From Botryllus schlosseri (Eukaryota), in NCBI GenBank assembly GCA_051294905.1, contig CM119371.1, positions 5,954,001-6,018,000 on the forward strand: DNA of 64,000 bases. Reading direction: 5' to 3'. The notes beneath the pieces are model-generated. The model had not been told where the DNA came from, searched no databases, and saw nothing but the letters and a program-made list of their open reading frames with translations. The stretch's first letter is position 1. Each line of letters starts with the position of its first letter. Positions 37,472-57,499 of the stretch are shown here, one piece after another. The translations under genes were made by a program, and so were the position numbers.

Positions 37472-40390
37472 GGGGAGACCGGGGACAAATGTAACTAGGG
37501 GCAAATGTAACAATCGACCTCACCGCTAGTAGGATGGAGAAATATCCTTGGTATTTTGACTGCGCATGCGCTAGTTGTTTCTCCTAACATACCTGGAGTC
37601 ACGTTGAGCTGCAGCATGAAACCTCGGAATTATTTGGAAAAAACGAAATTTTCAACACGTGAGTAAAGATTTTCTGATCTAGAATAATTTGTTCTGAAGA
37701 ATAATACCTCAAGTGATTGCAACTTACTATAGGCCGCTGGAACAATGTTACCATAGTCCACCGTGATGATAGGAAAACTAGGATTGGCATCGCCAGGAAA
37801 GTACCGTACGGAGACAGTAATCATGGTCGAACGTGTCAGGGGCAGTTGTAACTCTCTGTTACTTTTGCCCCGTTACAATTTTTATTTTTAGTGCTAAATA
37901 TATTTATTTATATGCTAGTATAATACCCATTTATCTACTACAGATTGTTCTTGCAATAGCTGGACGTTCAATACCAGCATAGATACTGCCTTTGATATAC
38001 CAATTATAACCGTTAACGACCATCCACAGGAGTGATGATGTGAATCTTCTGGTTCAGTTATTTCTCTATGAGTTTCTTCCATCCTTTCTCATGTTGATTG
38101 AGTTTTGGTGTGTCGAATTCAATACTGATTTTACAAATAATCCATGTCTGAACTACGGAATCCCGATCTTCTGAAGTTGGGCGGTTCTCACTTAGCCTAC
38201 ACTTTCTCATTTTCCGTGAACATTTTTTCTAATTTTCTCCAGAATAAAGAATGGTTCGTGAAAGAAAAAGAACTACAGAGCGTGGAAAGGAGCTTCATAA
38301 CTTGACCGAAGCCATTCATCAAGTACTAGACTGTGGGAAGCCTTTAAGATTCGTGGCTCGGAATTTCGGGATTTGTCATGTCACATTGTATCGACACTGT
38401 AAGAAATCTACCAAAGATCAACGGAATAGACCAGCACCAACATGGGGTTACAGCCCACATAACCGTGTATTCAATGAAACCCACGAGAAGATATTGGTTG
38501 AGTATCTTATACAAGCTGCTGACCTATACTATGGTTTGACGCCACGAGAAGTCAGAAAGCTTGCTTTCAACTGTGCTGTAAAGCATCAGCTTAACTTCCC
38601 TTCTAAGTGGAACGATAATCAAATGGCTGGATGTGATTGGTTTAGTAGTTTCTTGAAACGCCATCCTTCCCTGTCAATCAGGAAACCCCAGGCCACTAGT
38701 GTAGCTCGCGCGACTGCATTCAACCGCACTACCGTCAATGAATTCTTCAATAACTTGAAGGATGTGATGTGCCGTTATAAGTTTCCTCCTCAAAATATAT
38801 ACAACGTTGACGAAACAGGCGTGACAACAGTGCAGAGGCTCGATCGGATTGTGGCACAAAAAGGAAAGAAACAGATTGGATCAATGACATCACAAGAAAG
38901 AGGAACGTTGGTTACATGTGCCGTAGCAATCAATGCAACAGGTAACAGTGTTCCCCCCTTTTCGTTTTTCCCAGGAAAAAATTTCATCAACACTTTATAA
39001 GAGATGGGCCGATCGGTTGCACTGGAACGGCCAATGAGTCCGGATGGATGCAGGAAGAAGACTTTGTTGTCTTCTTGAAGCACTTTTCCGATCATGCCAA
39101 GCCTACAAAAGAGCGGCCAGTTCTTCTATTACTAGATAATCATGAGTCACACCTATCCATCAATGCCCTGGAATTTTGTAAGGCGTCACATATTGTCATG
39201 CTCACTTTCCCTCCCCATACATCACACAAGCTGCAGCCTTTGGATAGAGGAGTTTTTGGTCCATTTAAGAAAGCTATCAATTCGGCATGTGATAGCTGGA
39301 TGATGGGGAATCCTGGCACTACTATGACAATCTACCATGTCCCTGGAATTGTTAGCAAAGCGCTGCCATTGGCTTTGAAGCCACAAAATGTTGTGTCCTC
39401 GTTCTCCTGCACCGGCATTGTCCCATTTAACGAAGATATTTTCAGTGAGGTCGATTTCGCACCTTCTCGGGTGACCGACAGACCCAATCCGTTATGCACG
39501 ATAAGCAACGGGACCTCCGGGGAAGGAGCCGAACATGATCAGGGAGATGTGGGAGCAGCTATGGTTCCCGATACGGAGACGATTTGTCAAAATATCCCAT
39601 CGCCGGCTGTTTTGCAGAATGCACCAGAGGCATATTTTAATTTGGAACCTTCCACAAGTCTCGGAAATGATGAAATATTTTCCCCAGTTAAAGTCCGGCC
39701 ATTTCCAAAAGCAGCACCTCGGAAAGTTACAAATAGAAAAAGGCGTAAATCAGCCATAGTTACTGACACACCAGTGAAAAACCAAATCATTGAAGCTAGG
39801 CGGAAAACGATGGCGAACAGATTTCAAAAAAAACTTTTCCCAAAGAAGAAAGGATCTTCGCAATCATCCCAAACATCAGAAACAGACGAATCTAACATAT
39901 GTCTGATTTGTGATGAGCATTTCAGCAACAGTCGCCCAGGAGAGAAATGGATCAAATGTGTCTCTTGTACACTTTGGGCGCATGAGGAATGCACGACGGG
40001 AGACGCAGTATTTAACTGCCAAAACTGCGAGGAGGCATAGCCTGGAAGCTTTCCAATATTTCTTTTGTCAGTCTTTTTTGCAATGTTAACATTTATGTTC
40101 ACATTTCCGTTTTCAATTTCGTTCGTTCTAAGTTATATTGAAAACTGTTACAATTGCCCCACATCGGTGGTACAATTGCCCCGGGGTACGGGGCGATTGT
40201 AACGTTTGAGCGACGATTTTCGCGATCAAAAATTTCCATGATGTATTGTTGATTGATTTTCTTTGTTGTTCTTGTATGAACTATTGAGTTCATAGTTTCT
40301 TTGTGTAAAACTTTGGAAAAAAAATTTTCATGAAAAATACACCAAATGTCCAAAAATACGAAAAGTGTTACAATTGTCCCCGGTCTCCCC
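37472..40390 (+). mobile_element. pogo-superfamily (Fot1-like, DD35D) DNA transposon, full length 2919 bp
   Basis: 24-bp TIRs GGGGAGACCGGGGACAA(A/T)TGTAAC with one mismatch; TA duplication at 37470-71 and 40391-92; subterminal GGGCAANTGTAAC repeats at both ends. Confidence 0.96.
38251..40040 (+). pseudogene. pogo transposase (HTH-psq + CENP-B HTH + DDE_1 + PHD finger) split by one frameshift
   Basis: ORFs 38251-39000 and 39048-40040 join through a 1-nt shift near 38960 to give VPPFFVFPRKKF…ANESGWMQ. Catalytic motifs NVDETG, LLLLDNH and QPLD, with 35 residues between D2 and D3. C-terminal C4HC3 motif CLIC…WIKCVSC…AHEEC…CQNC. Confidence 0.92.
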
Positions 40391-41094: not shown

Positions 41095-41362
41095 AGGTAA
41101 CCTAGCAATTTTATCAAGTAGCCAGTACAATTTTTAAAAAAGTCATTTTTGAAACCCCTGGGTCTTGCGATCAGCGTTCACGTTTGAGTCATTTGATTTC
41201 TTTATTAGATGAAGGGAAGACATCAACTGCTGATGGCTGCGGAGGTGAACCTCCATCCTGTAGCACCACTAGTCAAGTCTAGTCAAGGTGCCTGTGTTAT
41301 GTAGAAGTGTGCGAGATTGACTGTTTCTTGAATTGTAGTGACTACTTGATAGAATTGTTAGG
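41095..41362. mobile_element. ~275-bp MITE whose right TIR is split by the Polinton-like insertion (TIR completes at 54987-54993); a second partial copy lies at ~55265-55420
   Basis: ttaggtaacctagcaattttatcaagtagccagtacaatt (41093-41132) is the imperfect inverse of aattgtagtgactacttgatagaattgttagg (41331-41362) + ttacctaa (54987-54994). 55265-55420 repeats 41093-41252 directly. Confidence 0.75.
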
Positions 41363-41380
41363 AGTAGTTATATAGATCGC

Positions 41381-41800
41381 TGGTGACCTGGCAGGGGCTC
41401 TTATGGGCGGGGTGGTGACCTGCCTGAAAACCCGGGGTGATGACCCCACCCTTTTAGACCCCCTATGTGGTGGTGACCTGCCATTGTTTCTTATGGGCGC
41501 GGTGATGACCCCACCCTTTCAGGTATAGGCTGCGGTGATGATATACCTTGAAAACTCGTGTTGGTGACCCCACCCTTTCGGTATAGGCTGCGGTGATGAC
41601 CTGCCGTCTGGTATTCGAGGGAATCCTAACGTTTACGGTGAATACGACTTCGATATATCGTTATTCTTATGGACGCGGCGATGATTCGTACTTTCGGGTA
41701 TAGACCGCGGCGGTATGTTAACTTAGCTGATATAGCCATGATAACGTTACAGGTATAGGCTGTGGTGGTGATTCGCCATGTGTTCTTATGGGTGCGCTCG
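41381..41800. repeat. GC-rich subterminal motif cluster (mirrored at ~54543-54962)
   Basis: Recurring GGTG(A/G)TGACC, CCCACCCTTT, TCTTATGGGCG and GTATAGGCTGCGGTG modules. Confidence 0.8.
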
Positions 41801-44800
41801 CACGTCGTACTTTCAAGTATAGGTATCTCTCGCATGTCGTATACCGCCAGTGTCGGTAACTTGAATAGCGACAAATTGTCACTTATTTCCGCTCTAACCC
41901 TAATCCTTTGTGAAGTGAACGCTTATTCAAAAGGGTGTGATATAATATTAAAATCCAACGACCACTCACCGGATAATGCTTCAGACATATAGCAATCCCT
42001 CATACCCGCTCACAAGGTAATATTTCGGTAATAAGTTTGTCACAGTGCCGTCGCAGACGGTGATTCGAAAACCAACAATTTGTCACTCGCCCGCGATCGC
42101 TATATGTTTCACGCCTCCAGAATAGTGGCTGACTTTAGTTGCGTGATAAGATCCATGAAAATATTCAATCAATGTGTTAGTTTATCAACTTGAAATGAAA
42201 CTCACTACACAAATCAAGTCGATTCGTATCTGAATGTTTTAAATCGGTACAACTCTAATCCTTTGACAAATCCCTTAACGCGCTTTTGTTGAATCGAACG
42301 TAACCCGAATATTACTGACGCCGACTTTCAGCCGCATCGAATTATTCGCACATTCCGCGCCACTGTTTTCACACTTATAGAATCAATACCAACTATAACT
42401 CTACAAGAACCAAGAATCACAAGTATGTGCATTACACAGTTATTGTCTTTATTAACTTGAAATCAAACACTTAACAAAAACACGCAACTAATCATTTGGC
42501 AACTCTAACATTACCAAAAAATTCCAGTATTGTTGATTGAAAATCCTTGATTCATTATTATCAAAAATGTTATAGTACCGCATCGGAATCCATTCGCGGG
42601 ATGTACTGAAGGTAAATCCAGATAATCCAAAATGAAATATTTGGACTTTGACATAGTCTGAATTGAAATATATTGACAAACATGACTACCAACTTTGATC
42701 CAGTCACATTTCAAGATCATACTTTGAAACAATCCTTGAAACTTACAACTCTATTCACGACTGAGTTTTCCGTTTACCAAATAGAGTTTCAGTAAATACT
42801 ATCGCGATATTTTAATGTGTTACTACACACAATAGAATCAATCAATGAAATAGCACCTGTTGTAAATATTTCTAACTTGACAACCACTTGTGCATACCGC
42901 GATCGAGTTGCGACACGATGAGTTAAATCGGAATATTTCAATCTATTTGTCGAAACCTTGAACAAGCTATCTGGTTATTTTTTCGTTGCAATTGAGTTAA
43001 CGGAAATAGTATTACGTCTCGACATCTTACCATCTTACCATACTCCAAAGAGCCAACAAGGAAAAACCTTGTCAAGTAAATCGTTTGTAACTCACCCAAT
43101 CAACTCAAACAGTATCAGTATGAAAACATTCAAGCATACACGAGTAATCGCTACAATCTAAAATCCATAGCATGTTCGGTTTTAGGCATATACCGTCAAC
43201 TCGTCTTTTTTGTTCAACTGTAAAAGTCGTTACTATTCTGCGAGACAAAGAAATTACTCTGCGGTATATTTTGTAAGATAAAAGTAATTACTTCTCGGTG
43301 CCGGTGACTTGAGATTAACATAATATGTTTGAGTATGCGAGATTTGAAAGTCTGCCCAACATGTTGAGAATTCATTTCTTACAATCGAACACAGGTGTTA
43401 TATTGAAAATTATCATGATGTAAACATAAGGATTGACACATTGATTTGACATATGTAATAGTTGATCATGACTTGATTATTAAATTATTCGCGTTAATTA
43501 GACCCGGCGTTGTGGTAAAGATCATTGTGACAGCAACAAACTTTTCAGTACCATTGTTATTAACATATTGAGTTGTAAACTATGTGTGTCTAAAATGTTC
43601 TTGATAGGAAAATTACTCCACCTTTGTACAAACCACGCAGCGTATTGTAGATATCAGGAAATATTTTACAAATGTAATTGTCTCCACTAACCAAGACTAA
43701 AGATGAAACAACAATTTCCTTTGTTGAACAATAACCGGTACAACACTTTATCATCGTAATCAGCAGTGAGAATTGAAACACTTTCGTACATTATCCGGTG
43801 TCAAGATATCACGCTAGGTGAATTGACATACCGCCGCTTGATTAATACTTATTCCATTCGCACCATTTCACATACTTTGATCATTACAAAAGTAAATTGG
43901 GATATGTTTGCTAGATGCATTCAATTCAGTTAGAAATATCTGGTACACAACAATCGTAATATCAAGGAAGTACTTGCTACGCTGTAATTCACTTAACGTG
44001 TTTTGCATTGTTGTTCATTTGTAGTATTGATTGTTTTTGAACCCCCAAATAATAATTCCCGACATGAAACCAAACCACTGAAAGTCGTTACCATCACAAC
44101 GAAACAATTTGTACGATGTTTGCCAAATGTATCCTATAGTTAGGTGTACTAAAATTATTTGTCTAACACATACACCGATAATGCAGCCGAAAATTTTTCC
44201 GTTATCATTCGCTAAAGTAGATGTAATCATAGTCACTAAAAGACGGTACTTGCATGCGATTGAATCCCTAGCAACTCACTAAACCGAACTCCAAATAAAT
44301 TTTACTCACTCGACGGATATGAAACAGCGTCGCTTAATCGATCTATATCGTTTTTCTAAATGCAAATCATATACACCCAGCAGAAAACAATTTTCACTCG
44401 CTTGGTAATGAAACCGAAGTCTCCATTTGATATTTTATTTTTGGTCAAATACTTTGCAATGAACACATTTGAGTGGTTGAGCTTTACATCATCAAGCTGT
44501 AATCTGTAAATCAAGCTTACATCCGATTTGTAACTGTATCGTTTAACTACCGGGTTGCATCAGTTTGCCATTTTTGTCATTTAGCGACTGCTGAACATAC
44601 CAAACGATACACATTCACTTACGAAATACTGTGTTGATCGTAATTTCCATCATCGTGATAATCGAAGTACATTTGTTTCGAGTTCAAAACAACCGACTAC
44701 TTCTCTATGACATGACGAATTTTTGAAAAGTTATGCTTAGAAGATTGGTGCATCTCGCGAAAAATAATATACCACTCATATTGATACTGTTACTCCATTG

Positions 44801-46334
44801 ACCGGTATTTTCAAACGAGTCGATTTTCAACCGAGCAAAATTTATTACTTGAGTTGTCCCGCTTACTATATTTAAGTGTAAACTCACCCGTCTTTCAAAA
44901 CCACAACAAACAATGATAAAAAGTACACAAGCGAACACAACAAGTTTTACTTTTGTAGGACATTAATTATTATTCCACGCATCTCATTTCATACTAAGTG
45001 TATATGAAAGATATTCATGGTACACGAAAATATTCGATATTCCATGCTACGAACATACGCAATGATTGGTGACGCTTTCACACTATTTCGATTTAGTGTA
45101 TCATAAACAACAACAACAATTTTCACTCTCTTGACTTATGAAAACAACAGACGAACCTTCATTCAATATTTGGTTTTTGTCAACTAGTTACTTTTTCATG
45201 AGACCCCCACAACTCTTACAAAAGTACGAAGGATATTTACATCACACAAAGTAATCAACTTTACTCGATATTCTCACATTACGAAACTAAAGAAAAGTTG
45301 GTTTGACTCTACAAACTGTTTTGTTACCTCAAGACCTTTATTGTCTGAATGGTTGTTCATGTGTCTTAAGAACCAAATAGTTCAACACAGCACTAGTACC
45401 AACAGCAACATCAGAGTTGTTTACACAAAAGTTTGTATGTGCGCAGTATGTGAATACCGCGTGTAAGTCCAACACAATTGCAGTATCCAGCCGAGATTAG
45501 TTAACACCAATTTATTACAACGGAACCACGTAAACTTTCGTGAATGTAAGGCATACTCACCTCTCGAGATTATGTCAATGTCATAGCAATAAACCAGCTA
45601 CTCCAACAACAGAGTACATATGTTTTCTAGTTACGGTGCTTACATCTTACACACAAATCGACCTACTTTGCTAACGAAAAGCGCTGAGTCATCACATGGT
45701 TATCCTCACAACAATACAACTAAAACATACTATCATACAAATTGGTCGTTATAGTTTGCCCACCAACGATACATCGTACAAGTAGCAAGTCTCGAGAATC
45801 CAGTTATTCAAAAAACGTGAAAGTGTTTCTACACCAAGTCGGTATGTTGACGAAAGCATATATTGTAATATCATGATCGATTTACATTCGTTGGTCACAA
45901 AATGTCACTACTCTAAATAATTATTTTTCACTCAAAGCCTACTTGTCACCATTCGTTTCATCAAGCACGAGTTCAAGAAACCTGCTACGACATGAATTGT
46001 TATTTTTATGTTGTGTAAATAGGTAATAATTAATTTTAGTAACACTATATCAACATCATCGAGTTGTGCGAATAGATTTACATGTGGTCTTGTGGTTTTA
46101 ATCGAAGTATACAGCACGGTCTAATGTAGAGTCATCTCTACTGTACAGCAACTCGGTAATCGAAATGCATTCAAATTTAAACAACGATCTTGTTTCGTCG
46201 CACCAAAAATATGTTTACTATCGCGATACTCTGCACAAGCCGTGCAAATCCTTTTCACACTCGTAATAGTATACAAACAGCTACCGGCGACAACGTTTAA
46301 CAATACCAACGACACTAAACATACGATACCTACC

Positions 46335-46950
46335 CAAGTAAAATTACCATTTTCACCTGGAGGTCGGTCGTTACCCGAGTAGAAATACCATTGTCCTTTG
46401 GAGATTTATCGTTTACCCAGTGTAACAAACCCCTTTTCCTTTATAAATCTATTTTTTCTCTGTGTAACAAACCTTTTTCACTTGGAAATATATTTTTCTC
46501 TGGTTAACAAACCTTTTTCACTTGGAAATATATTTTTTCTCTGGTTAACAAACCTTTTTCACTTGGAAATATATTTTTTTTTTCTGGGTAACAAACCTTT
46601 TTCACTTGGAAATATATTTTTTCTCTGGGTAACAAACCTTTTTCACTTGGAAATATATTTTTTCCCCGCGTAACAAACCTTTTTCCCTGAGCAACAAACC
46701 ATTTTCACTTGGTGGTCCATCGTTTACCCGAGTAAAAATATCATTTTCTTTTGGAGATCCGGCGTTTATCCAGTGTAACAATTCATTTTCACTTGAAAAA
46801 ATACTTTTACCTAGAGTAACTAATCATTTTCTCCTGGGTAACAAACCCTTTTCGTTTGGAAACTATCATTTACCTGAGTACCAATACAGTTTTCACTTGG
46901 AAATCTACCTTCTCCCTGGGTAACAATATCATTTTCGTTTTGAAAACCGA
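46335..46950. repeat. ~40-bp minisatellite inside the element arm (mirrored at ~49393-50008)
   Basis: Core unit AACAAACCTTTTTCACTTGGAAATATATTTTTTCTCTGG(G/T)T; near-perfect at ~46465-46680 and degenerate outward. Confidence 0.9.
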
Positions 46951-48340
46951 CAACCACACCGGACAATTTGATATTTTTGTATATTGTTACAACGGGCAGT
47001 GACAAAATATACACCAACAACGACTCCGATACATTTGTCTAATCAAATATTCACTTGCTCTGATGCATCCCATCAAAATCATTGGTTACTCACGTACAAT
47101 AACAATGTGCTATTGTACATCGACATGTATGTTTTCGGAATTGGTGAATAAAGGGGTTTCCGATATGTCCGTGATGTCCGGGTTTGTGCTTTGGATTTTC
47201 CAGAGTCAAAATGTCTGAATAAAACACCTCCTCGACTTTGGTAACTGGTTGATACACGGATAATGGTGTTCGGAAAACGGATGAATTTATGTTCCCCATC
47301 GCGCTGACAACATCGGGTTACTTGTGAGTTTCCTCGGGTCTGTTTACTATATTGTGTCTTTACTGGTCAATACATGTCGCTCCAGTCAGCTGAAACCGGA
47401 TCACCAATATGAGAAAGTGTGGGGGCCGGATCCGGATATTCACTCATGACCCAACGACCGATATTCAAGTAAACATGTTACAGACCGTGTTTTGTCTCCA
47501 TGAAAAATGCCAATGCATACACCATCACATCAAGTTCGTCACGATTGTTCACAAGTATTCGCGTAAACCAGGTGTATATACAATGTGTCGGTGTACAAAC
47601 ATCACGGAAAACAAATTCATGTTCTCAAGTCTCATCATGCGACGACTCTGTACATTCAATGTGGGCATAGATGACTTGGGGACAAGCAAGCAGCCATATT
47701 TGGACGTAACATGGTCTTAGTTTGAACCGACCGCCACCCAACTTGTGAAAAATCAATCTCACACGAGTACAACCCTTTCACGGATTCACACCTTGATTTT
47801 GCAAGATTGTTCGGATTCTCAGGTAGACTTGTATGGCGATACAGACTTCGACATAATCGAGTTGCGTAACTCGCTCAATCCCTCCACGTATTGTTCGTCC
47901 TAACCTGCGAACTTTTTTGCTGCGACCGCAGTGTTTCACCTGGTATAATGTATTTGGCGATCACCATCGTTATCAATCTTTCACGCGATGAATATGTCAG
48001 ATGTCGCTACTCCCACATAACGACTGCAGATAAACATCGTGAGCAGTGACTCCAGATTGAAATCGTAAACAGGGACTCTGTGTGTGTGAATCTCGAGTTC
48101 GATTACGATTAGATAATGTAATCCAAAGTGTGTCTCTGCAAGTTGGAGGCTTATTTCGTCTTAAAGGTTTATTTCGTGTTAATCACACCGCAAGAGGGTG
48201 CTGTCTCGTAATTCTACATGTCGTTATAAAACGCGGATGGAAACTTTTGGTCTAGTTGATCCAGCTACGTATTGAAACGGTTCACCCACGCAGACCACTG
48301 AGAAAACGTTGTCGTTACCTGACTATATGCACGAGTAAAT

Positions 48341-48619
48341 ATGGGACTACGCGTAACTGTCCATCGGTTTCTTTGGCCTCACACCGTGGTTTTACGACAC
48401 AGACAAGATGCAGCGGTGGAAATATTGAAAATGAAAAACGATACCTTGGTGACATTTGATATGGATTTTACACCTGATGAACCATACACTCGATTGGTAC
48501 ATTGGGATGACAACTCTATCGTCGAGGTCGAGGGAAAAGAAATGTACAGATTTGTTGGTGTTGTGGATATTCAGCGAAAATCAGGGTATATGGTTGTAAT
48601 GGTTCGCATATTTGACTGA
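48341..48619 (+). CDS. Intact 92-aa ORF of unknown function in the unique spacer
   Basis: ATG start, protein-like composition (…DTLVTFDMDFTPDEPYTRLVHWDDNSIVEVEGKEMYRFVGVVDIQ…), flanked by same-strand stop-interrupted frames. Confidence 0.45.
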   Translation: MGLRVTVHRFLWPHTVVLRHRQDAAVEILKMKNDTLVTFDMDFTPDEPYTRLVHWDDNSIVEVEGKEMYRFVGVVDIQRKSGYMVVMVRIFD

Positions 48620-48658
48620 GAATATATCGGTACGCATAATGCACTGTCCATTGTATCA

Positions 48659-51600
48659 TGTCCCCAAGTCATCTATGCCCACATTGAATGTACAGAGTCG
48701 TCGCATGATGAGACTTGAGAACATGAATTTGTTTTCCGTGATGTTTGTACACCGACACATTGTATGTACACCTGGTTTACGCGAATACTTGTGAACAATC
48801 GTGACGAACTTGATGTGATGGTGTATGCATTGGCATTTTTCATGGAGACAAAACACGGTCTGTAACATGTTTACTTGAATATCGGTCGTTGGGTCATGAG
48901 TGAATATCCGGATCCGGCCCCCACACTTTCTCATATTGGTGATCCGGTTTCAGCTGACTGGAGCGACATGTATTGACCAGTAAAGACACAATATAGTAAA
49001 CAGACCCGAGGAAACTCACAAGTAACCCGATGTTGTCAGCGCGATGGGGAACATAAATTCATCCGTTTTCCGAACACCATTATCCGTGTATCAACCAGTT
49101 ACCAAAGTCGAGGAGGTGTTTTATTCAGACATTTTGACTCTGGAAAATCCAAAGCACAAACCCGGACATCACGGACATATCGGAAACCCCTTTATTCACC
49201 AATTCCGAAAACATACATGTCGATGTACAATAGCACATTGTTATTGTACGTGAGTAACCAATGATTTTGATGGGATGCATCAGAGCAAGTGAATATTTGA
49301 TTAGACAAATGTATCGGAGTCGTTGTTGGTGTATATTTTGTCACTGCCCGTTGTAACAATATACAAAAATATCAAATTGTCCGGTGTGGTTGTCGGTTTT
49401 CAAAACGAAAATGATATTGTTACCCAGGGAGAAGGTAGATTTCCAAGTGAAAACTGTATTGGTACTCAGGTAAATGATAGTTTCCAAACGAAAAGGGTTT
49501 GTTACCCAGGAGAAAATGATTAGTTACTCTAGGTAAAAGTATTTTTTCAAGTGAAAATGAATTGTTACACTGGATAAACGCCGGATCTCCAAAAGAAAAT
49601 GATATTTTTACTCGGGTAAACGATGGACCACCAAGTGAAAATGGTTTGTTGCTCAGGGAAAAAGGTTTGTTACGCGGGGAAAAAATATATTTCCAAGTGA
49701 AAAAGGTTTGTTACCCAGAGAAAAAATATATTTCCAAGTGAAAAAGGTTTGTTACCCAGAAAAAAAAAATATATTTCCAAGTGAAAAAGGTTTGTTAACC
49801 AGAGAAAAAATATATTTCCAAGTGAAAAAGGTTTGTTAACCAGAGAAAAATATATTTCCAAGTGAAAAAGGTTTGTTACACAGAGAAAAAATAGATTTAT
49901 AAAGGAAAAGGGGTTTGTTACACTGGGTAAACGATAAATCTCCAAAGGACAATGGTATTTCTACTCGGGTAACGACCGACCTCCAGGTGAAAATGGTAAT
50001 TTTACTTGGGTAGGTATCGTATGTTTAGTGTCGTTGGTATTGTTAAACGTTGTCGCCGGTAGCTGTTTGTATACTATTACGAGTGTGAAAAGGATTTGCA
50101 CGGCTTGTGCAGAGTATCGCGATAGTAAACATATTTTTGGTGCGACGAAACAAGATCGTTGTTTAAATTTGAATGCATTTCGATTACCGAGTTGCTGTAC
50201 AGTAGAGATGACTCTACATTAGACCGTGCTGTATACTTCGATTAAAACCACAAGACCACATGTAAATCTATTCGCACAACTCGATGATGTTGATATAGTG
50301 TTACTAAAATTAATTATTACCTATTTACACAACATAAAAATAACAATTCATGTCGTAGCAGGTTTCTTGAACTCGTGCTTGATGAAACGAATGGTGACAA
50401 GTAGGCTTTGAGTGAAAAATAATTATTTAGAGTAGTGACATTTTGTGACCAACGAATGTAAATCGATCATGATATTACAATATATGCTTTCGTCAACATA
50501 CCGACTTGGTGTAGAAACACTTTCACGTTTTTTGAATAACTGGATTCTCGAGACTTGCTACTTGTACGATGTATCGTTGGTGGGCAAACTATAACGACCA
50601 ATTTGTATGATAGTATGTTTTAGTTGTATTGTTGTGAGGATAACCATGTGATGACTCAGCGCTTTTCGTTAGCAAAGTAGGTCGATTTGTGTGTAAGATG
50701 TAAGCACCGTAACTAGAAAACATATGTACTCTGTTGTTGGAGTAGCTGGTTTATTGCTATGACATTGACATAATCTCGAGAGGTGAGTATGCCTTACATT
50801 CACGAAAGTTTACGTGGTTCCGTTGTAATAAATTGGTGTTAACTAATCTCGGCTGGATACTGCAATTGTGTTGGACTTACACGCGGTATTCACATACTGC
50901 GCACATACAAACTTTTGTGTAAACAACTCTGATGTTGCTGTTGGTACTAGTGCTGTGTTGAACTATTTGGTTCTTAAGACACATGAACAACCATTCAGAC
51001 AATAAAGGTCTTGAGGTAACGAAACAGTTTGTAGAGTCAAACCAACTTTTCTTTAGTTTCGTAATGTGAGAATATCGAGTAAAGTTGATTACTTTGTGTG
51101 ATGTAAATATCCTTCGTACTTTTGTAAGAGTTGTGGGGGTCTCATGAAAAAGTAACTAGTTGACAAAAACCAAATATTGAATGAAGGTTCGTCTGTTGTT
51201 TTCATAAGTCAAGAGAGTGAAAATTGTTGTTGTTGTTTATGATACACTAAATCGAAATAGTGTGAAAGCGTCACCAATCATTGCGTATGTTCGTAGCATG
51301 GAATATCGAATATTTTCGTGTACCATGAATATCTTTCATATACACTTAGTATGAAATGAGATGCGTGGAATAATAATTAATGTCCTACAAAAGTAAAACT
51401 TGTTGTGTTCGCTTGTGTACTTTTTATCATTGTTTGTTGTGGTTTTGAAAGACGGGTGAGTTTACACTTAAATATAGTAAGCGGGACAACTCAAGTAATA
51501 AATTTTGCTCGGTTGAAAATCGACTCGTTTGAAAATACCGGTCAATGGAGTAACAGTATCAATATGAGTGGTATATTATTTTTCGCGAGATGCACCAATC

Positions 51601-54600
51601 TTCTAAGCATAACTTTTCAAAAATTCGTCATGTCATAGAGAAGTAGTCGGTTGTTTTGAACTCGAAACAAATGTACTTCGATTATCACGATGATGGAAAT
51701 TACGATCAACACAGTATTTCGTAAGTGAATGTGTATCGTTTGGTATGTTCAGCAGTCGCTAAATGACAAAAATGGCAAACTGATGCAACCCGGTAGTTAA
51801 ACGATACAGTTACAAATCGGATGTAAGCTTGATTTACAGATTACAGCTTGATGATGTAAAGCTCAACCACTCAAATGTGTTCATTGCAAAGTATTTGACC
51901 AAAAATAAAATATCAAATGGAGACTTCGGTTTCATTACCAAGCGAGTGAAAATTGTTTTCTGCTGGGTGTATATGATTTGCATTTAGAAAAACGATATAG
52001 ATCGATTAAGCGACGCTGTTTCATATCCGTCGAGTGAGTAAAATTTATTTGGAGTTCGGTTTAGTGAGTTGCTAGGGATTCAATCGCATGCAAGTACCGT
52101 CTTTTAGTGACTATGATTACATCTACTTTAGCGAATGATAACGGAAAAATTTTCGGCTGCATTATCGGTGTATGTGTTAGACAAATAATTTTAGTACACC
52201 TAACTATAGGATACATTTGGCAAACATCGTACAAATTGTTTCGTTGTGATGGTAACGACTTTCAGTGGTTTGGTTTCATGTCGGGAATTATTATTTGGGG
52301 GTTCAAAAACAATCAATACTACAAATGAACAACAATGCAAAACACGTTAAGTGAATTACAGCGTAGCAAGTACTTCCTTGATATTACGATTGTTGTGTAT
52401 CAGATATTTCTAACTGAATTGAATGCATCTAGCAAACATATCCCAATTTACTTTTGTAATGATCAAAGTATGTGAAATGGTGCGAATGGAATAAGTATTA
52501 ATCAAGCGGCGGTATGTCAATTCACCTAGCGTGATATCTTGACACCGGATAATGTACGAAAGTGTTTCAATTCTCACTGCTGATTACGATGATAAAGTGT
52601 TGTACCGGTTATTGTTCAACAAAGGAAATTGTTGTTTCATCTTTAGTCTTGGTTAGTGGAGACAATTACATTTGTAAAATATTTCCTGATATCTACAATA
52701 CGCTGCGTGGTTTGTACAAAGGTGGAGTAATTTTCCTATCAAGAACATTTTAGACACACATAGTTTACAACTCAATATGTTAATAACAATGGTACTGAAA
52801 AGTTTGTTGCTGTCACAATGATCTTTACCACAACGCCGGGTCTAATTAACGCGAATAATTTAATAATCAAGTCATGATCAACTATTACATATGTCAAATC
52901 AATGTGTCAATCCTTATGTTTACATCATGATAATTTTCAATATAACACCTGTGTTCGATTGTAAGAAATGAATTCTCAACATGTTGGGCAGACTTTCAAA
53001 TCTCGCATACTCAAACATATTATGTTAATCTCAAGTCACCGGCACCGAGAAGTAATTACTTTTATCTTACAAAATATACCGCAGAGTAATTTCTTTGTCT
53101 CGCAGAATAGTAACGACTTTTACAGTTGAACAAAAAAGACGAGTTGACGGTATATGCCTAAAACCGAACATGCTATGGATTTTAGATTGTAGCGATTACT
53201 CGTGTATGCTTGAATGTTTTCATACTGATACTGTTTGAGTTGATTGGGTGAGTTACAAACGATTTACTTGACAAGGTTTTTCCTTGTTGGCTCTTTGGAG
53301 TATGGTAAGATGGTAAGATGTCGAGACGTAATACTATTTCCGTTAACTCAATTGCAACGAAAAAATAACCAGATAGCTTGTTCAAGGTTTCGACAAATAG
53401 ATTGAAATATTCCGATTTAACTCATCGTGTCGCAACTCGATCGCGGTATGCACAAGTGGTTGTCAAGTTAGAAATATTTACAACAGGTGCTATTTCATTG
53501 ATTGATTCTATTGTGTGTAGTAACACATTAAAATATCGCGATAGTATTTACTGAAACTCTATTTGGTAAACGGAAAACTCAGTCGTGAATAGAGTTGTAA
53601 GTTTCAAGGATTGTTTCAAAGTATGATCTTGAAATGTGACTGGATCAAAGTTGGTAGTCATGTTTGTCAATATATTTCAATTCAGACTATGTCAAAGTCC
53701 AAATATTTCATTTTGGATTATCTGGATTTACCTTCAGTACATCCCGCGAATGGATTCCGATGCGGTACTATAACATTTTTGATAATAATGAATCAAGGAT
53801 TTTCAATCAACAATACTGGAATTTTTTGGTAATGTTAGAGTTGCCAAATGATTAGTTGCGTGTTTTTGTTAAGTGTTTGATTTCAAGTTAATAAAGACAA
53901 TAACTGTGTAATGCACATACTTGTGATTCTTGGTTCTTGTAGAGTTATAGTTGGTATTGATTCTATAAGTGTGAAAACAGTGGCGCGGAATGTGCGAATA
54001 ATTCGATGCGGCTGAAAGTCGGCGTCAGTAATATTCGGGTTACGTTCGATTCAACAAAAGCGCGTTAAGGGATTTGTCAAAGGATTAGAGTTGTACCGAT
54101 TTAAAACATTCAGATACGAATCGACTTGATTTGTGTAGTGAGTTTCATTTCAAGTTGATAAACTAACACATTGATTGAATATTTTCATGGATCTTATCAC
54201 GCAACTAAAGTCAGCCACTATTCTGGAGGCGTGAAACATATAGCGATCGCGGGCGAGTGACAAATTGTTGGTTTTCGAATCACCGTCTGCGACGGCACTG
54301 TGACAAACTTATTACCGAAATATTACCTTGTGAGCGGGTATGAGGGATTGCTATATGTCTGAAGCATTATCCGGTGAGTGGTCGTTGGATTTTAATATTA
54401 TATCACACCCTTTTGAATAAGCGTTCACTTCACAAAGGATTAGGGTTAGAGCGGAAATAAGTGACAATTTGTCGCTATTCAAGTTACCGACACTGGCGGT
54501 ATACGACATGCGAGAGATACCTATACTTGAAAGTACGACGTGCGAGCGCACCCATAAGAACACATGGCGAATCACCACCACAGCCTATACCTGTAACGTT

Positions 54601-54980
54601 ATCATGGCTATATCAGCTAAGTTAACATACCGCCGCGGTCTATACCCGAAAGTACGAATCATCGCCGCGTCCATAAGAATAACGATATATCGAAGTCGTA
54701 TTCACCGTAAACGTTAGGATTCCCTCGAATACCAGACGGCAGGTCATCACCGCAGCCTATACCGAAAGGGTGGGGTCACCAACACGAGTTTTCAAGGTAT
54801 ATCATCACCGCAGCCTATACCTGAAAGGGTGGGGTCATCACCGCGCCCATAAGAAACAATGGCAGGTCACCACCACATAGGGGGTCTAAAAGGGTGGGGT
54901 CATCACCCCGGGTTTTCAGGCAGGTCACCACCCCGCCCATAAGAGCCCCTGCCAGGTCACCAGCGATCTATATAACTATT
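48659..54980. repeat. Right arm of giant inverted repeat (6322 bp)
   Basis: Reverse complement of 41363-47684. I spotted only four mismatches (41364/54979, 43943/52400, 45322/51021, 47577/48766). Confidence 0.98.
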
Positions 54981-54995
54981 GTTAGGTTACCTAAT

Positions 54996-55181: not shown

Positions 55182-57499
55182 TTAAGAAATTTAGATTTGA
55201 AAAAAATAGTTTTTACCCTGGCACATTCCGAAGTATTTACCAATATAGTTCTTAGTCAAATTCATTAGGTAACCCAACAATTGTAGCCAGTACAATTTGA
55301 CAGAAAAAGTCCTTTTTGAACACCCTTGTGTCCTGCGATGATCATTCACGTTTGAGTCATTTGATTTCTTTATTAGATGAAGGGAAGACATCAACTGCTG
55401 ATGGATGCGAAGGTGAACCTGAATGTATTATAATAATAATGTATTATTCTGATTGATAGTGTATGGCACCATTCAGGATTACATGGATGGCAAGAACAAT
55501 CCGACCGCACATGAAAATATGGATCGCATATTTGTTCGCCTGGGATCAATTTTGACCCAGCCTTAGTGATGGCGGGTTGGGGTCATAATGCATTCACTAT
55601 TTGTTACTTACTTCAGAGATAGGGGCGGCTAGGCCTGTATTGAACGGTATGTGCTGCGAACCTTTGTGTTCGGTCATCGCGGACCATAGCTTTGTTGGAA
55701 AAACGACCTATCGTATCATAAGGCCACGTATAAATATCGTCATTCCATGACGTTCTAAATACTGCTATCTCTGTCTAAGGAAACGTGCGATCACGCCTCG
55801 AAAGCTGCTGAATAGGGCCAACGGACTGGTGGTGATTAGACTACCAGACAAGCCGAGACAACTAAATTATTAAGGCTATGGCTGACAGGGAATTAGGACA
55901 AACACAATAATTCGGCATCCCTGTTTAGCTCAACTTAACGGAAGAAGAATTTGAGTCAGAATACAGTGTAACTGGAGAATAGCTCTAAAGTAGAAGCTGT
56001 ATTCTTGTATTTCATTTATTATATACACGGATTTATTATACCGATACACAAAATTTATGTTAAGTTCCAGAAAGTAAAAGACATTTTATTGTGATTGAAT
56101 CGCTAAGTGTGCCCCTGAAAAAAAAAACATCTCGGGGACTATGGAGAGTTCATTTACTCGAATGCAAGGCTGCTCAATTTCCACCTTATAGGAAAAATGA
56201 TTTTTCGCAAAGAACATGTTTGTCTTTAATGAAAGTCTGTTATACGGTTATTGTCTATTAAGTAGAGTGTTTATATTAAATTGCAGGGTACAAATCCAAT
56301 TAGGGATGCACATTGTAGTGAATGTGCAGCAGCGCAGCGCAGCGCGAAAAATTTTAGAAAATATTGCATAAATTTTCAAAAAATACTCTATAATTTATGC
56401 TAATTCACGAAATAATTTGGGGCCCCCTTCGAGCTCGCCCCCCCCCAATTGGGGGGTTTGGGGTGGGGCAGTTACGGTGCTGGTGGTTTGTTAATACTGG
56501 AATCAAAATTTCCTGTCCCCGCGACACCATATTACCAAAAACTAGAACTGGGAGAAAATCAACTTTGAAAATTGAAAAATATTTTGGTGAAAAAGTAGAG
56601 CAAGTATTTGAAATCCCTTGCTTTTAAATGGTGCAGGCATGCTGTATTTAGTACATAGCCAAATTTGAAGACAATTGAATGTGCCTAAATGCAAAATTAG
56701 TCATATAAAGTATGAGTGATTCGATGATTTTTTACTCAAAACTGCTATACCATATTCGAAAAATTTGCAAACCTTGAATTGGACATCAGTTAGATGTTGT
56801 AAAGATGAAACAACATATCAAGAATACTGCAACATTGTCAAAATACCCATTTCAGTTGGTATGGGTGAAGATACTACATCCATATTTCCCCCCGAGACCT
56901 TTCAAACATACAATTTTTAGCATCAATTTCATCATGTCACTCCAATACGAATTTGAGTTGCGCAACCCTTATGCAGTATCCTGGGCGCTTGTGCATGGAA
57001 AACCGTAACTCGTACTTTTTAAAGGAAAAAGAGGGCCTATTCCATAGGTGTAAGTGTAATTTTCACCGATCTATCTGGTGTCATGGGGGCGCACTATAGC
57101 CTATGACGACAGCGTGATGCAAATGATCGCATGATCGAAGGCTTCATATGATTCATATTTCCGACTGTTAATCACCGAGCATATGGATATTTTTTCACAA
57201 GAGCTCCCTCATTTTAGATTACCAATCCACCGAATATTAGCCAATCTCCAGGGCATCAGAATTGCGCCAATTTTCGCTTTGCAGATCTAAATTATACACT
57301 AACAGGTTGCGGCATTATGCTACTCAGATAGTCAATTCATATTTACCATTATATACAATAATAGGACGTTCAGAAACTCTATTTTGCGTTATTCGCTATA
57401 TACTATATACATGGATATACGGTACTATATAACCATAGAAATGATAGAATAAATCACTTTATTTCATAAATTTTAATAATACACTGTGATTGACTCCTA

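Follow-up and report, generated by a model that had tools for sequence, protein, structure and literature searches.

A 13.6-kb element that is almost entirely one palindrome and that carries the ends of a Polinton lies in a 64,000-nucleotide stretch of the Botryllus schlosseri genome (assembly GCA_051294905.1, contig CM119371.1, positions 5,954,001 to 6,018,000; this whole stretch is termed the window below, and positions without a contig name are counted from its first letter). This element is one insertion of an old, diversified, high-copy palindromic family. The family is probably best understood as an abundant and long-lived lineage of palindromic satellites that Polintons mobilise in trans, in which arms of around 6.3-7.1 kb enclose a unique centre of around 0.9-1.0 kb. 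No description of such elements was found in the full-text literature searched, though they may have been described earlier under another name.

The palindromic family, its arms and its probable helper

Direct comparison of positions 41363-47684 with the reverse complement of 48659-54980 gives 4 differences over 6,322 positions, and repeat detection places the inverted arms at 41365-47684 and 48659-54978 (6,320 nt) with 974 nt between them. One of the differences is at terminal position 2, where the left end has AG and the right end AA (reading inward); the remaining three are internal transitions (pairs 43943/52400, 45322/51021, and 47577/48766), one of which is at a CpG. The hexamer GTTAGG stands directly outside both ends of the element.

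The search for relatives covered the 495-Mb assembly, and the counts given here for the family are lower bounds drawn from the best-scoring matches of longer candidate lists. The best 40 of 2,253 candidate matches to the terminal 400 bp were scored and fall mostly into inverted pairs 13-15 kb apart. Eight of these end-pair loci were retrieved from the assembly: seven are relatives of the window element, each with paired inverted arms, and the eighth is an autonomous Polinton. In four copies, namely the window copy and those termed C11, C1a, and C1b, the arms are uninterrupted, measure 6.3-7.1 kb and are 99.8-100% identical within each copy: C11 has arms of 7,120 bp with 10 mismatches around a centre of 915 bp, C1a has arms of 6,258 bp with 12 mismatches (centre 934 bp), and C1b has arms of 6,285 bp with 0 mismatches (centre 932 bp). 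An insertion is present in a single arm of the C7 and C3 copies, and the C14 and C2 copies are interrupted by long interspersed nuclear elements (LINEs) with endonuclease-reverse transcriptase-RNase H frames. The C2 copy, in which only a 2.2-kb repeat is left, was considered as a possible non-palindromic progenitor and was rejected, being a LINE-disrupted copy instead.

At the paired ends, 11 of the 12 duplications are perfect over 6 bp and the other matches at five of six positions; all twelve are different. AGTAGT starts every paired end examined, with one base changed at the right end of the window copy. The 974-bp centre (best 40 of 1,077 candidates) recurs at full length with 86-99% identity, and both arm/centre junctions are at the same nucleotides in all six copies examined, in three of which the innermost ~10 bp of one arm has been inherited unpaired. 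The subfamilies are 13-26% apart in their arms. A 26-nt word taken from the small open reading frame (ORF) of the centre occurs, with up to 3 mismatches, at least 311 times in the genome versus once for a reversed control; at ~13.6 kb per copy, this would come to roughly 4 Mb of the 495 Mb, an extrapolation over copies that are mostly uninspected.

Copies diverge from one another, but within each of them the two arms show concerted evolution. The left arms of four copies differ pairwise by 777-1,479 substitutions (13-26%) and more than 1,600 gap columns, whereas the arms within one copy differ at 0-12 positions where no nested insertion is present. Over a 2-kb segment, the window element and its closest copy (C15) differ at 18 sites, 17 of which are changed symmetrically in both arms and 1 in one arm only; the comparison with the next relative gives 2 one-arm differences, as opposed to 59 substitutions and 13 gap columns that affect both arms alike. 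Since decay after insertion would give one-arm differences, the symmetric ones indicate that a change in one arm is either copied across or lost. Copies with a LINE or a large one-arm insertion tend to show more arm differences, as in C14 (~0.4%) and C3 (~0.5%), but C7 and C2 do not. Between copies, the identity of the arms is a mosaic in which blocks at 97-100% adjoin blocks at 45-80%, different pairs having different blocks (L031, L036, and L038 against 41363-47684), which points to frequent recombination among the satellite lineages.

The autonomous Polinton, on contig C5, is 18,542 bp long and has terminal inverted repeats (TIRs) of 588 bp at 95.6% identity, flanked by the duplication AACACC. 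Its genes include PolB (PF03175) and an integrase that combines rve and chromo domains; an A32-like ATPase has weak matches only, and further frames are protease- and capsid-like by position, with no Pfam match. Autonomous Polintons, which would act as helpers, are abundant in this genome: of 313 PolB candidates the best 54 were scored, the matched part is free of stops in 44 of them, and frame lengths are mostly 1,200-1,300 aa. One PolB frame of the autonomous family lies at C1:5934715-5937237, ~17 kb before the window's first base; it is 95% identical and open over 1,214 aa.

The first 341 bp of the window element match either end of the autonomous copy (L042/L043) at 93% identity, the first 18 nt being the same. 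Beyond these 341 bp, the resemblance to the helper is limited to a 289-bp patch at 69% (positions 925-1213 of the window arm against 1060-1328 of the autonomous copy, L042). In other copies, ~0.9 kb of helper subterminal sequence is present on both arms; it is of the right-end type in C14 (95.6%) and of the left-end type in a second copy, C14b (92.8%), which suggests continuing exchange between the outer arms and the ends of helpers. No remnants of Polinton proteins were found in the arms, where a tblastn search with the ORFs of the autonomous copy matched only a frame overlapping the TIR, and no PolB, integrase, capsid, protease, or ATPase gene was found in the window element by ORF listing and tblastn. 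Its longest ORF has at most 108 aa. Frames of 45 codons or more that stay open across three diverged copies are absent from the arms, bar one in the terminal repeat, which is 95-99% identical between copies, and Rfam and tRNA scans of an arm plus the centre gave no match. Over their remaining ~5 kb, beyond the ends and outer-arm patches of 0.3-1.3 kb, the arms are non-coding and not derived from a Polinton.

In a published account, a Polinton is defined as encoding PolB and integrase (PMC5499653). The window element, which has neither, is by this definition not a Polinton but a non-autonomous derivative. Its ends recur in an integrase-encoding Polinton resident in this genome, and one and the same structure has been inserted many times at different sites with different duplications; both features are to be expected of a trans-mobilised derivative. 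The shared ends, the duplication, and the abundance of the helper make it very probable that a Polinton integrase integrated the satellite in trans. When compared with Polintons/Mavericks at large, the satellite has the same AG-type ends, TIRs, 6-bp duplication, and end identity; it differs in that its arms are 6.3 kb long, versus TIRs of a few hundred bp, and in that its own gene is absent from the autonomous copy.

Part of this had been anticipated by a first-pass annotation of the window. It described the two 6322-bp arms, the 974-bp spacer, the AGTAGT-type ends, and the GTTAGG duplication accurately, and its view of the termini and the 6-bp target-site duplication (TSD) as Polinton-type agrees with the 11 perfect family pairs and with the end identity. 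It had proposed looking for an autonomous Polinton with the same termini, to which the C5 copy with its related ends corresponds, and for other insertions with the same junction and different TSDs, which the six copies provide. Integration as a unit by an integrase supplied in trans is supported by the shared ends, the duplication, and the presence of a helper encoding both PolB and integrase in the same genome, while the idea of a self-complementary molecule with two identical ends is borne out by the near identity of the arms and by other copies in which both arms start with the same helper end. The absence of core genes, also proposed, holds for PolB and integrase; the element is not gene-less, since its centre holds a conserved ORF of 91-93 aa.

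The small gene of the centre and a sister family

This ORF was searched for in the genome, and the best 150 of 1,194 candidates all have E values below 1e-49; 146 of these 150 are without a stop, the open frame usually being 97 codons long. The protein has 91-93 aa elsewhere in the family; the last few residues are altered in the window copy by an indel close to the 3' end of the ORF. In a second subfamily, termed B (C11, C1a, C1b, and C3), the centres align with that of the window copy across the ORF only, and the comparison of the window ORF with these four copies gives dN/dS values of 0.24-0.35 at dS 0.84-1.1. These values indicate that the orphan ORF of the centre is under purifying selection, and it is the sole conserved gene predicted in the element.

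Four public homologues of 90-91 aa and 66-97% identity are found on contigs of 0.9-1.1 kb, which is about what breakage of short-read assemblies at the arms would leave. The small protein has no Pfam match, no Atlas hit, and no PHROG match below E 0.03, and no relative below E 1 was found among solved structures. A profile search of 1.84 billion representatives returned only P0002 plus one WD40-repeat protein (E 7.6e-6 over five repeats); the latter was rejected as a homologue, its score being inflated by the repeats. AlphaFold models of the small protein are too poor to be used (mean pLDDT 40 and 46).

The most distant public homologue (P0004), when compared with the genome, reveals many inverted pairs of ORFs that point outward and are 1.3-43 kb apart. 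One of these pairs belongs to a sister element at C2:27208911-27229685 (L057), which has AGTAGT ends, a perfect 6-bp duplication (CACGTC), arms of ~7.26 kb, one of which has an insertion of ~5.4 kb, and a centre of 834 bp; here, each arm has the small ORF, at a distance of 127 bp from the centre. No nucleotide similarity was found between the sister element and the window family. The sister-family ends are multi-copy and form inverted pairs 11-17 kb apart. The small proteins of the two families are identical at 52 of 86 aa, and their synonymous sites are saturated. The families thus have in common the AGTAGT ends, the 6-bp duplication, the palindromic plan of ~13-15 kb, and the small gene; that these four features are shared despite unrelated DNA argues that the palindromic plan is old and maintained.

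A second sister copy (L058) reveals how a spacer can arise. It is a palindrome with a centre of 42 bp and is 99.9% identical to the first, except that 884 bp to one side of the centre are missing from the latter. The 834-bp sister spacer is therefore an inner arm whose partner was deleted, that is, the product of an asymmetric central deletion. By analogy, the 974-bp centre of the window family would most simply be explained as the remainder of such a deletion in an ancestor with the gene in both arms. The window ORF, which points outward and ends 39 bp from one arm, fits this origin.

The sister arms also contain a single-exon ORF of the Bcl-2 family (PF00452, E 1e-21) with a hydrophobic tail (L059:8474-9052 on the + strand; mirror L060:918-1496 on the - strand), which has a weaker match to the herpesvirus protein BALF1. 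A homologue is found at L062:5851-6393; the protein is 77% identical between the two elements, with a dN/dS of 0.39. This ORF is not present in the window element, and no description of a Polinton-ended element with a Bcl-2-like gene as its cargo was found in the literature searched.

Two further observations concern the inner parts of these palindromes. The sister inner arms (L057:150-1519 and its mirror) contain about five units of a 274-bp tandem repeat; in the window family, 41/42-bp repeats occur at the equivalent place. At C8:28154828-28155597, two window-type ORF motifs are inverted, 744 bp apart; this pair may represent a copy of the window family that has the gene in both arms and its palindrome centre upstream of it.

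The features of the window copy are collected in Table 1. In its surroundings, a 117-nt direct repeat with 87% identity is present once in each flank of the insertion (41136-41252 and 55304-55420), so that the insertion may have occurred within or next to another repeat. Around 1.3 kb upstream of the palindrome, a 364-aa frame (38946-40037, + strand) has a DDE_1 transposase domain of the pogo/Tigger type. Farther upstream, positions 3941-25753 are occupied by a satellite array (21.8 kb, ~299 copies of a 73-bp unit, 95% matches), which is responsible for the strong AT skew of this region.

Table 1. Features of the palindromic element in the window (TSD, target-site duplication)
Feature	Position	Strand	Remarks
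Left TSD copy, 6 bp, GTTAGG	41357..41362	.	6-bp duplication is the family rule
Left palindrome arm, 6,322 bp, non-coding	41363..47684	+	Frame, Rfam, and tRNA checks
Polinton-type terminal repeat	41363..41703	+	Starts AGTAGT; repeated GGTGACCTG-type subterminal motifs; common to autonomous Polintons
Patch similar to left subterminal sequence of the autonomous Polinton	42287..42575	+	69% over 295 aligned positions
41/42-bp tandem repeat array, inner arm	46412..46936	+	Mirrored at 49398-49997
Unique centre (spacer), 974 bp	47685..48658	+	Kept as a unit by the family
TATA-box-like motif, putative promoter	48225..48231	+	~110 bp upstream of the ATG; conserved in 6/6 subfamily-A copies
Small conserved ORF, orphan	48341..48619	+	92 aa in the window copy; predicted all-beta
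Right palindrome arm, 6,322 bp	48659..54980	-	Mirrors the left arm; end reads AATAGT inward, not AGTAGT
Right TSD copy, GTTAGG	54981..54986	.

Proposed mechanism and competing explanations

The mechanism proposed for the satellite lineage would begin with the helper's integrase inserting the satellite in trans via the shared ends. The helper's protein-primed polymerase would copy the satellite, and the helper's capsid might package it; replication, and possibly packaging, by the helper is suggested by analogy, and we are nearly as ready to accept it as to doubt it. The inverted-dimer form would lift a unit of ~7 kb to around three quarters of the helper's length, in parallel to helper-dependent adenovirus: the elements measure 13,618, 13,450, 13,502, and 15,147 bp, which is 72-82% of the single helper measured (18,542 bp). 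The identity of the arms would be restored when a displaced strand snaps back as a hairpin, an extreme form of the TIR panhandle, in which mismatches are repaired or an arm is re-copied; alternatively, it might be restored in the chromosome by arm-to-arm gene conversion. The unique centre would be what is left unpaired after an asymmetric deletion in a fuller palindrome with the ORF in both arms, and the small protein might serve the propagation of the satellite itself. The lineage itself may plausibly go back to copy-back synthesis or to the formation of an inverted dimer.

A more far-reaching version of this proposal would make the satellites true satellite viruses of Polintons: a self-complementary inverted dimer matched in size to the helper's capsid, a hairpin that restores both arms and the origin in each cycle, a 91-aa protein that exploits the helper, and, in the sister family, a Bcl-2-like gene that keeps the host cell alive. 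Taken together, these claims are attractive but rather doubtful.

Several points weigh against the proposal of a helper-driven satellite. No extrachromosomal, replicating, or packaged form has been observed, and no relative of the small ORF was found in the viral_contigs or metagenome_contigs collections, which may not sample the host. The RNA reads that match the element do not establish that the ORF is expressed: there are 18 bulk reads, 17 of which match only partly, and 77 single-cell reads, mostly from the arm at 49100-49390. The size match to the helper was judged against a single autonomous copy measured in full and by analogy with adenovirus. The deletion origin of the centre was seen in the sister family and is inferred for the window family by analogy. 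The role proposed for the small protein is a guess because this protein has no recognisable family or confident fold. The window copy may itself have lost its mobility, since the second base of its right end is changed and the C-terminus of its ORF is altered. Finally, homogenisation of the arms could be purely a matter of gene conversion in the chromosome, with no viral phase. A snap-back strand in helper-driven replication, copy-back synthesis, and chromosomal conversion are each compatible with the data.

An unlikely alternative, though the strongest of those considered, is that the palindrome is rebuilt in each replication cycle by copy-back, one arm and the centre being copied before the polymerase turns on the nascent strand to make the second arm; the mechanism of the first-pass annotation would thereby become a regular part of the life cycle. 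This would explain why arms that differ at so few positions within a copy belong to copies that are 13-26% apart, and why the differences from the closest copy are symmetric by 17 to 1; the more numerous arm differences in C14 and C3 look, moreover, as if arms drift only after insertion. However, mismatch repair in a hairpin or conversion in the chromosome predicts the same pattern, and C7 and C2 have nested insertions and yet nearly identical arms. The asymmetric innermost ~10 bp in three copies fits the plain inheritance of a fixed junction, and no replication intermediate has been observed.

Less likely still is a descent of the family from an autonomous element with multi-kb TIRs that lost its interior, in which case the arms would be the old TIRs and the centre a remnant of the core. 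Non-autonomous DNA transposons ordinarily arise by such internal deletions, and the outward inverted pairs of small ORFs that are 10-43 kb apart (on contigs C5, C12, C9, and C11 among others), and thus exceed a 14-kb element, could mark such larger parents. Against this, the measured autonomous Polinton has TIRs of only 588 bp, no PolB match (with 54 of 313 candidates scored) falls inside any of the wide pairs, and the 10 kb inside one of them (L062) contains no core gene but only the Bcl-2-like ORF.

The first-pass annotation had taken the element for a single defective-interfering molecule, formed when one Polinton end was copied back. A one-off snap-back or copy-back genome of this kind, made from the helper shortly before insertion, would indeed have near-identical arms and an intact duplication; it is now highly improbable, and is refuted for the family by the common junctions in 6/6 copies, the motif counted at least 311 times, and the 13-26% divergence between subfamilies. 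The arms are not helper sequence, being helper-like over only 341 bp plus the 289-bp patch and free of protein remnants, and in place of a single molecule there is a diversified family, with a sister family to which it has no DNA similarity. Near-perfect palindromes can be artefacts of chimeric reads, and an 8-bp duplication, TTGTTAGG, can formally be read on both sides of the window copy alone, but an assembly artefact or a foldback transposon of another superfamily is scarcely credible when the same architecture recurs at many loci with different duplications (which makes the window palindrome neither chance nor artefact), with LINEs nested in single arms, perfect 6-bp duplications in 11 of 12 family pairs, AGTAGT ends, and homology to Polinton TIRs.

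Related systems and biological meaning

The satellite family may be compared with several known systems. In the way it is proposed to work it recalls the helper-dependent or "gutless" adenovirus genomes, and in its appearance an oversized foldback element. According to a review of adenovirus vectors, genomes below ~75% of wild-type length rearrange in order to grow, and a 15-kb vector was packaged as direct and inverted dimers (PMC4189039). Adenoviruses and Polintons both replicate by protein priming, according to the literature. The satellite, at 72-82% of the length of one helper, may be set beside this threshold of ~75%, which is known for adenovirus only. Like the satellite, the gutless inverted dimers have helper ends and no helper genes, and the dimer is around three quarters of the helper's length. 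They are laboratory or sporadic products, whereas the satellite is natural, integrated, and multi-copy, has a gene of its own and a long history, and is known here from genome sequence alone. Palindromic adenovirus recombinants and the genomes of incomplete particles are of a related kind.

The foldback transposons, such as Drosophila FB and Galileo, also have very long inverted arms with tandem repeats and a short, variable centre, and Galileo is described as having long, internally repetitive TIRs. The satellite differs from them in its ends and 6-bp duplication, which are Polinton-type, and in its arms, which are several-fold longer and mostly unique sequence. FB and Galileo belong to the P or a related superfamily and have the ends and duplication of that type. 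As a natural, diversified, high-copy lineage with a conserved gene of its own and concerted arms, the satellite family is distinct both from these elements and from the gutless dimers.

Copy-back or snap-back defective interfering genomes resemble the satellite in having the same terminus at both ends and a self-complementary body. They are unlike it in that helper sequence in the satellite arms is limited to the ends and small patches, and in that the family is heritable, diversified, and protein-coding. Large chromosomal palindromes are kept identical by arm-to-arm gene conversion and can be stabilised by deletions of the centre. They share with the satellite an arm identity far above the divergence between copies and an asymmetric central deletion that creates a spacer, but they are host structures rather than mobile elements with target-site duplications. 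Transpovirons are small elements of the linear type with TIRs, dependent on another virus and able to integrate (PMC5499653); unlike the satellite, they are ~7 kb long, encode a fusion of a helicase and an inactivated polymerase, and are not palindromes.

To our knowledge, the replication and movement of Polintons have never been shown directly. The concerted evolution of 6-kb arms despite divergence at a quarter of their sites, together with a length of around three quarters of the helper in two unrelated families, makes a panhandle or hairpin step, and a possible packaging limit, testable. Short-read assembly tends to collapse palindromes of this kind or to break them apart, and the public homologues of the centre are all on contigs of ~1 kb. 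Logan contigs of the DNA run are likewise too short to reach across the structure.

Non-autonomous derivatives of Polintons can be long-lived lineages with genes of their own, the orphan protein here and the Bcl-2-like protein in the sister family, rather than mere products of decay. If the satellites were indeed satellite viruses, they would be the first natural counterpart in an animal genome of the phage satellites and of the gutless adenovirus dimers of the laboratory, and the single-strand "racket" step proposed for Polinton replication would gain a signature that can be read in the genome.

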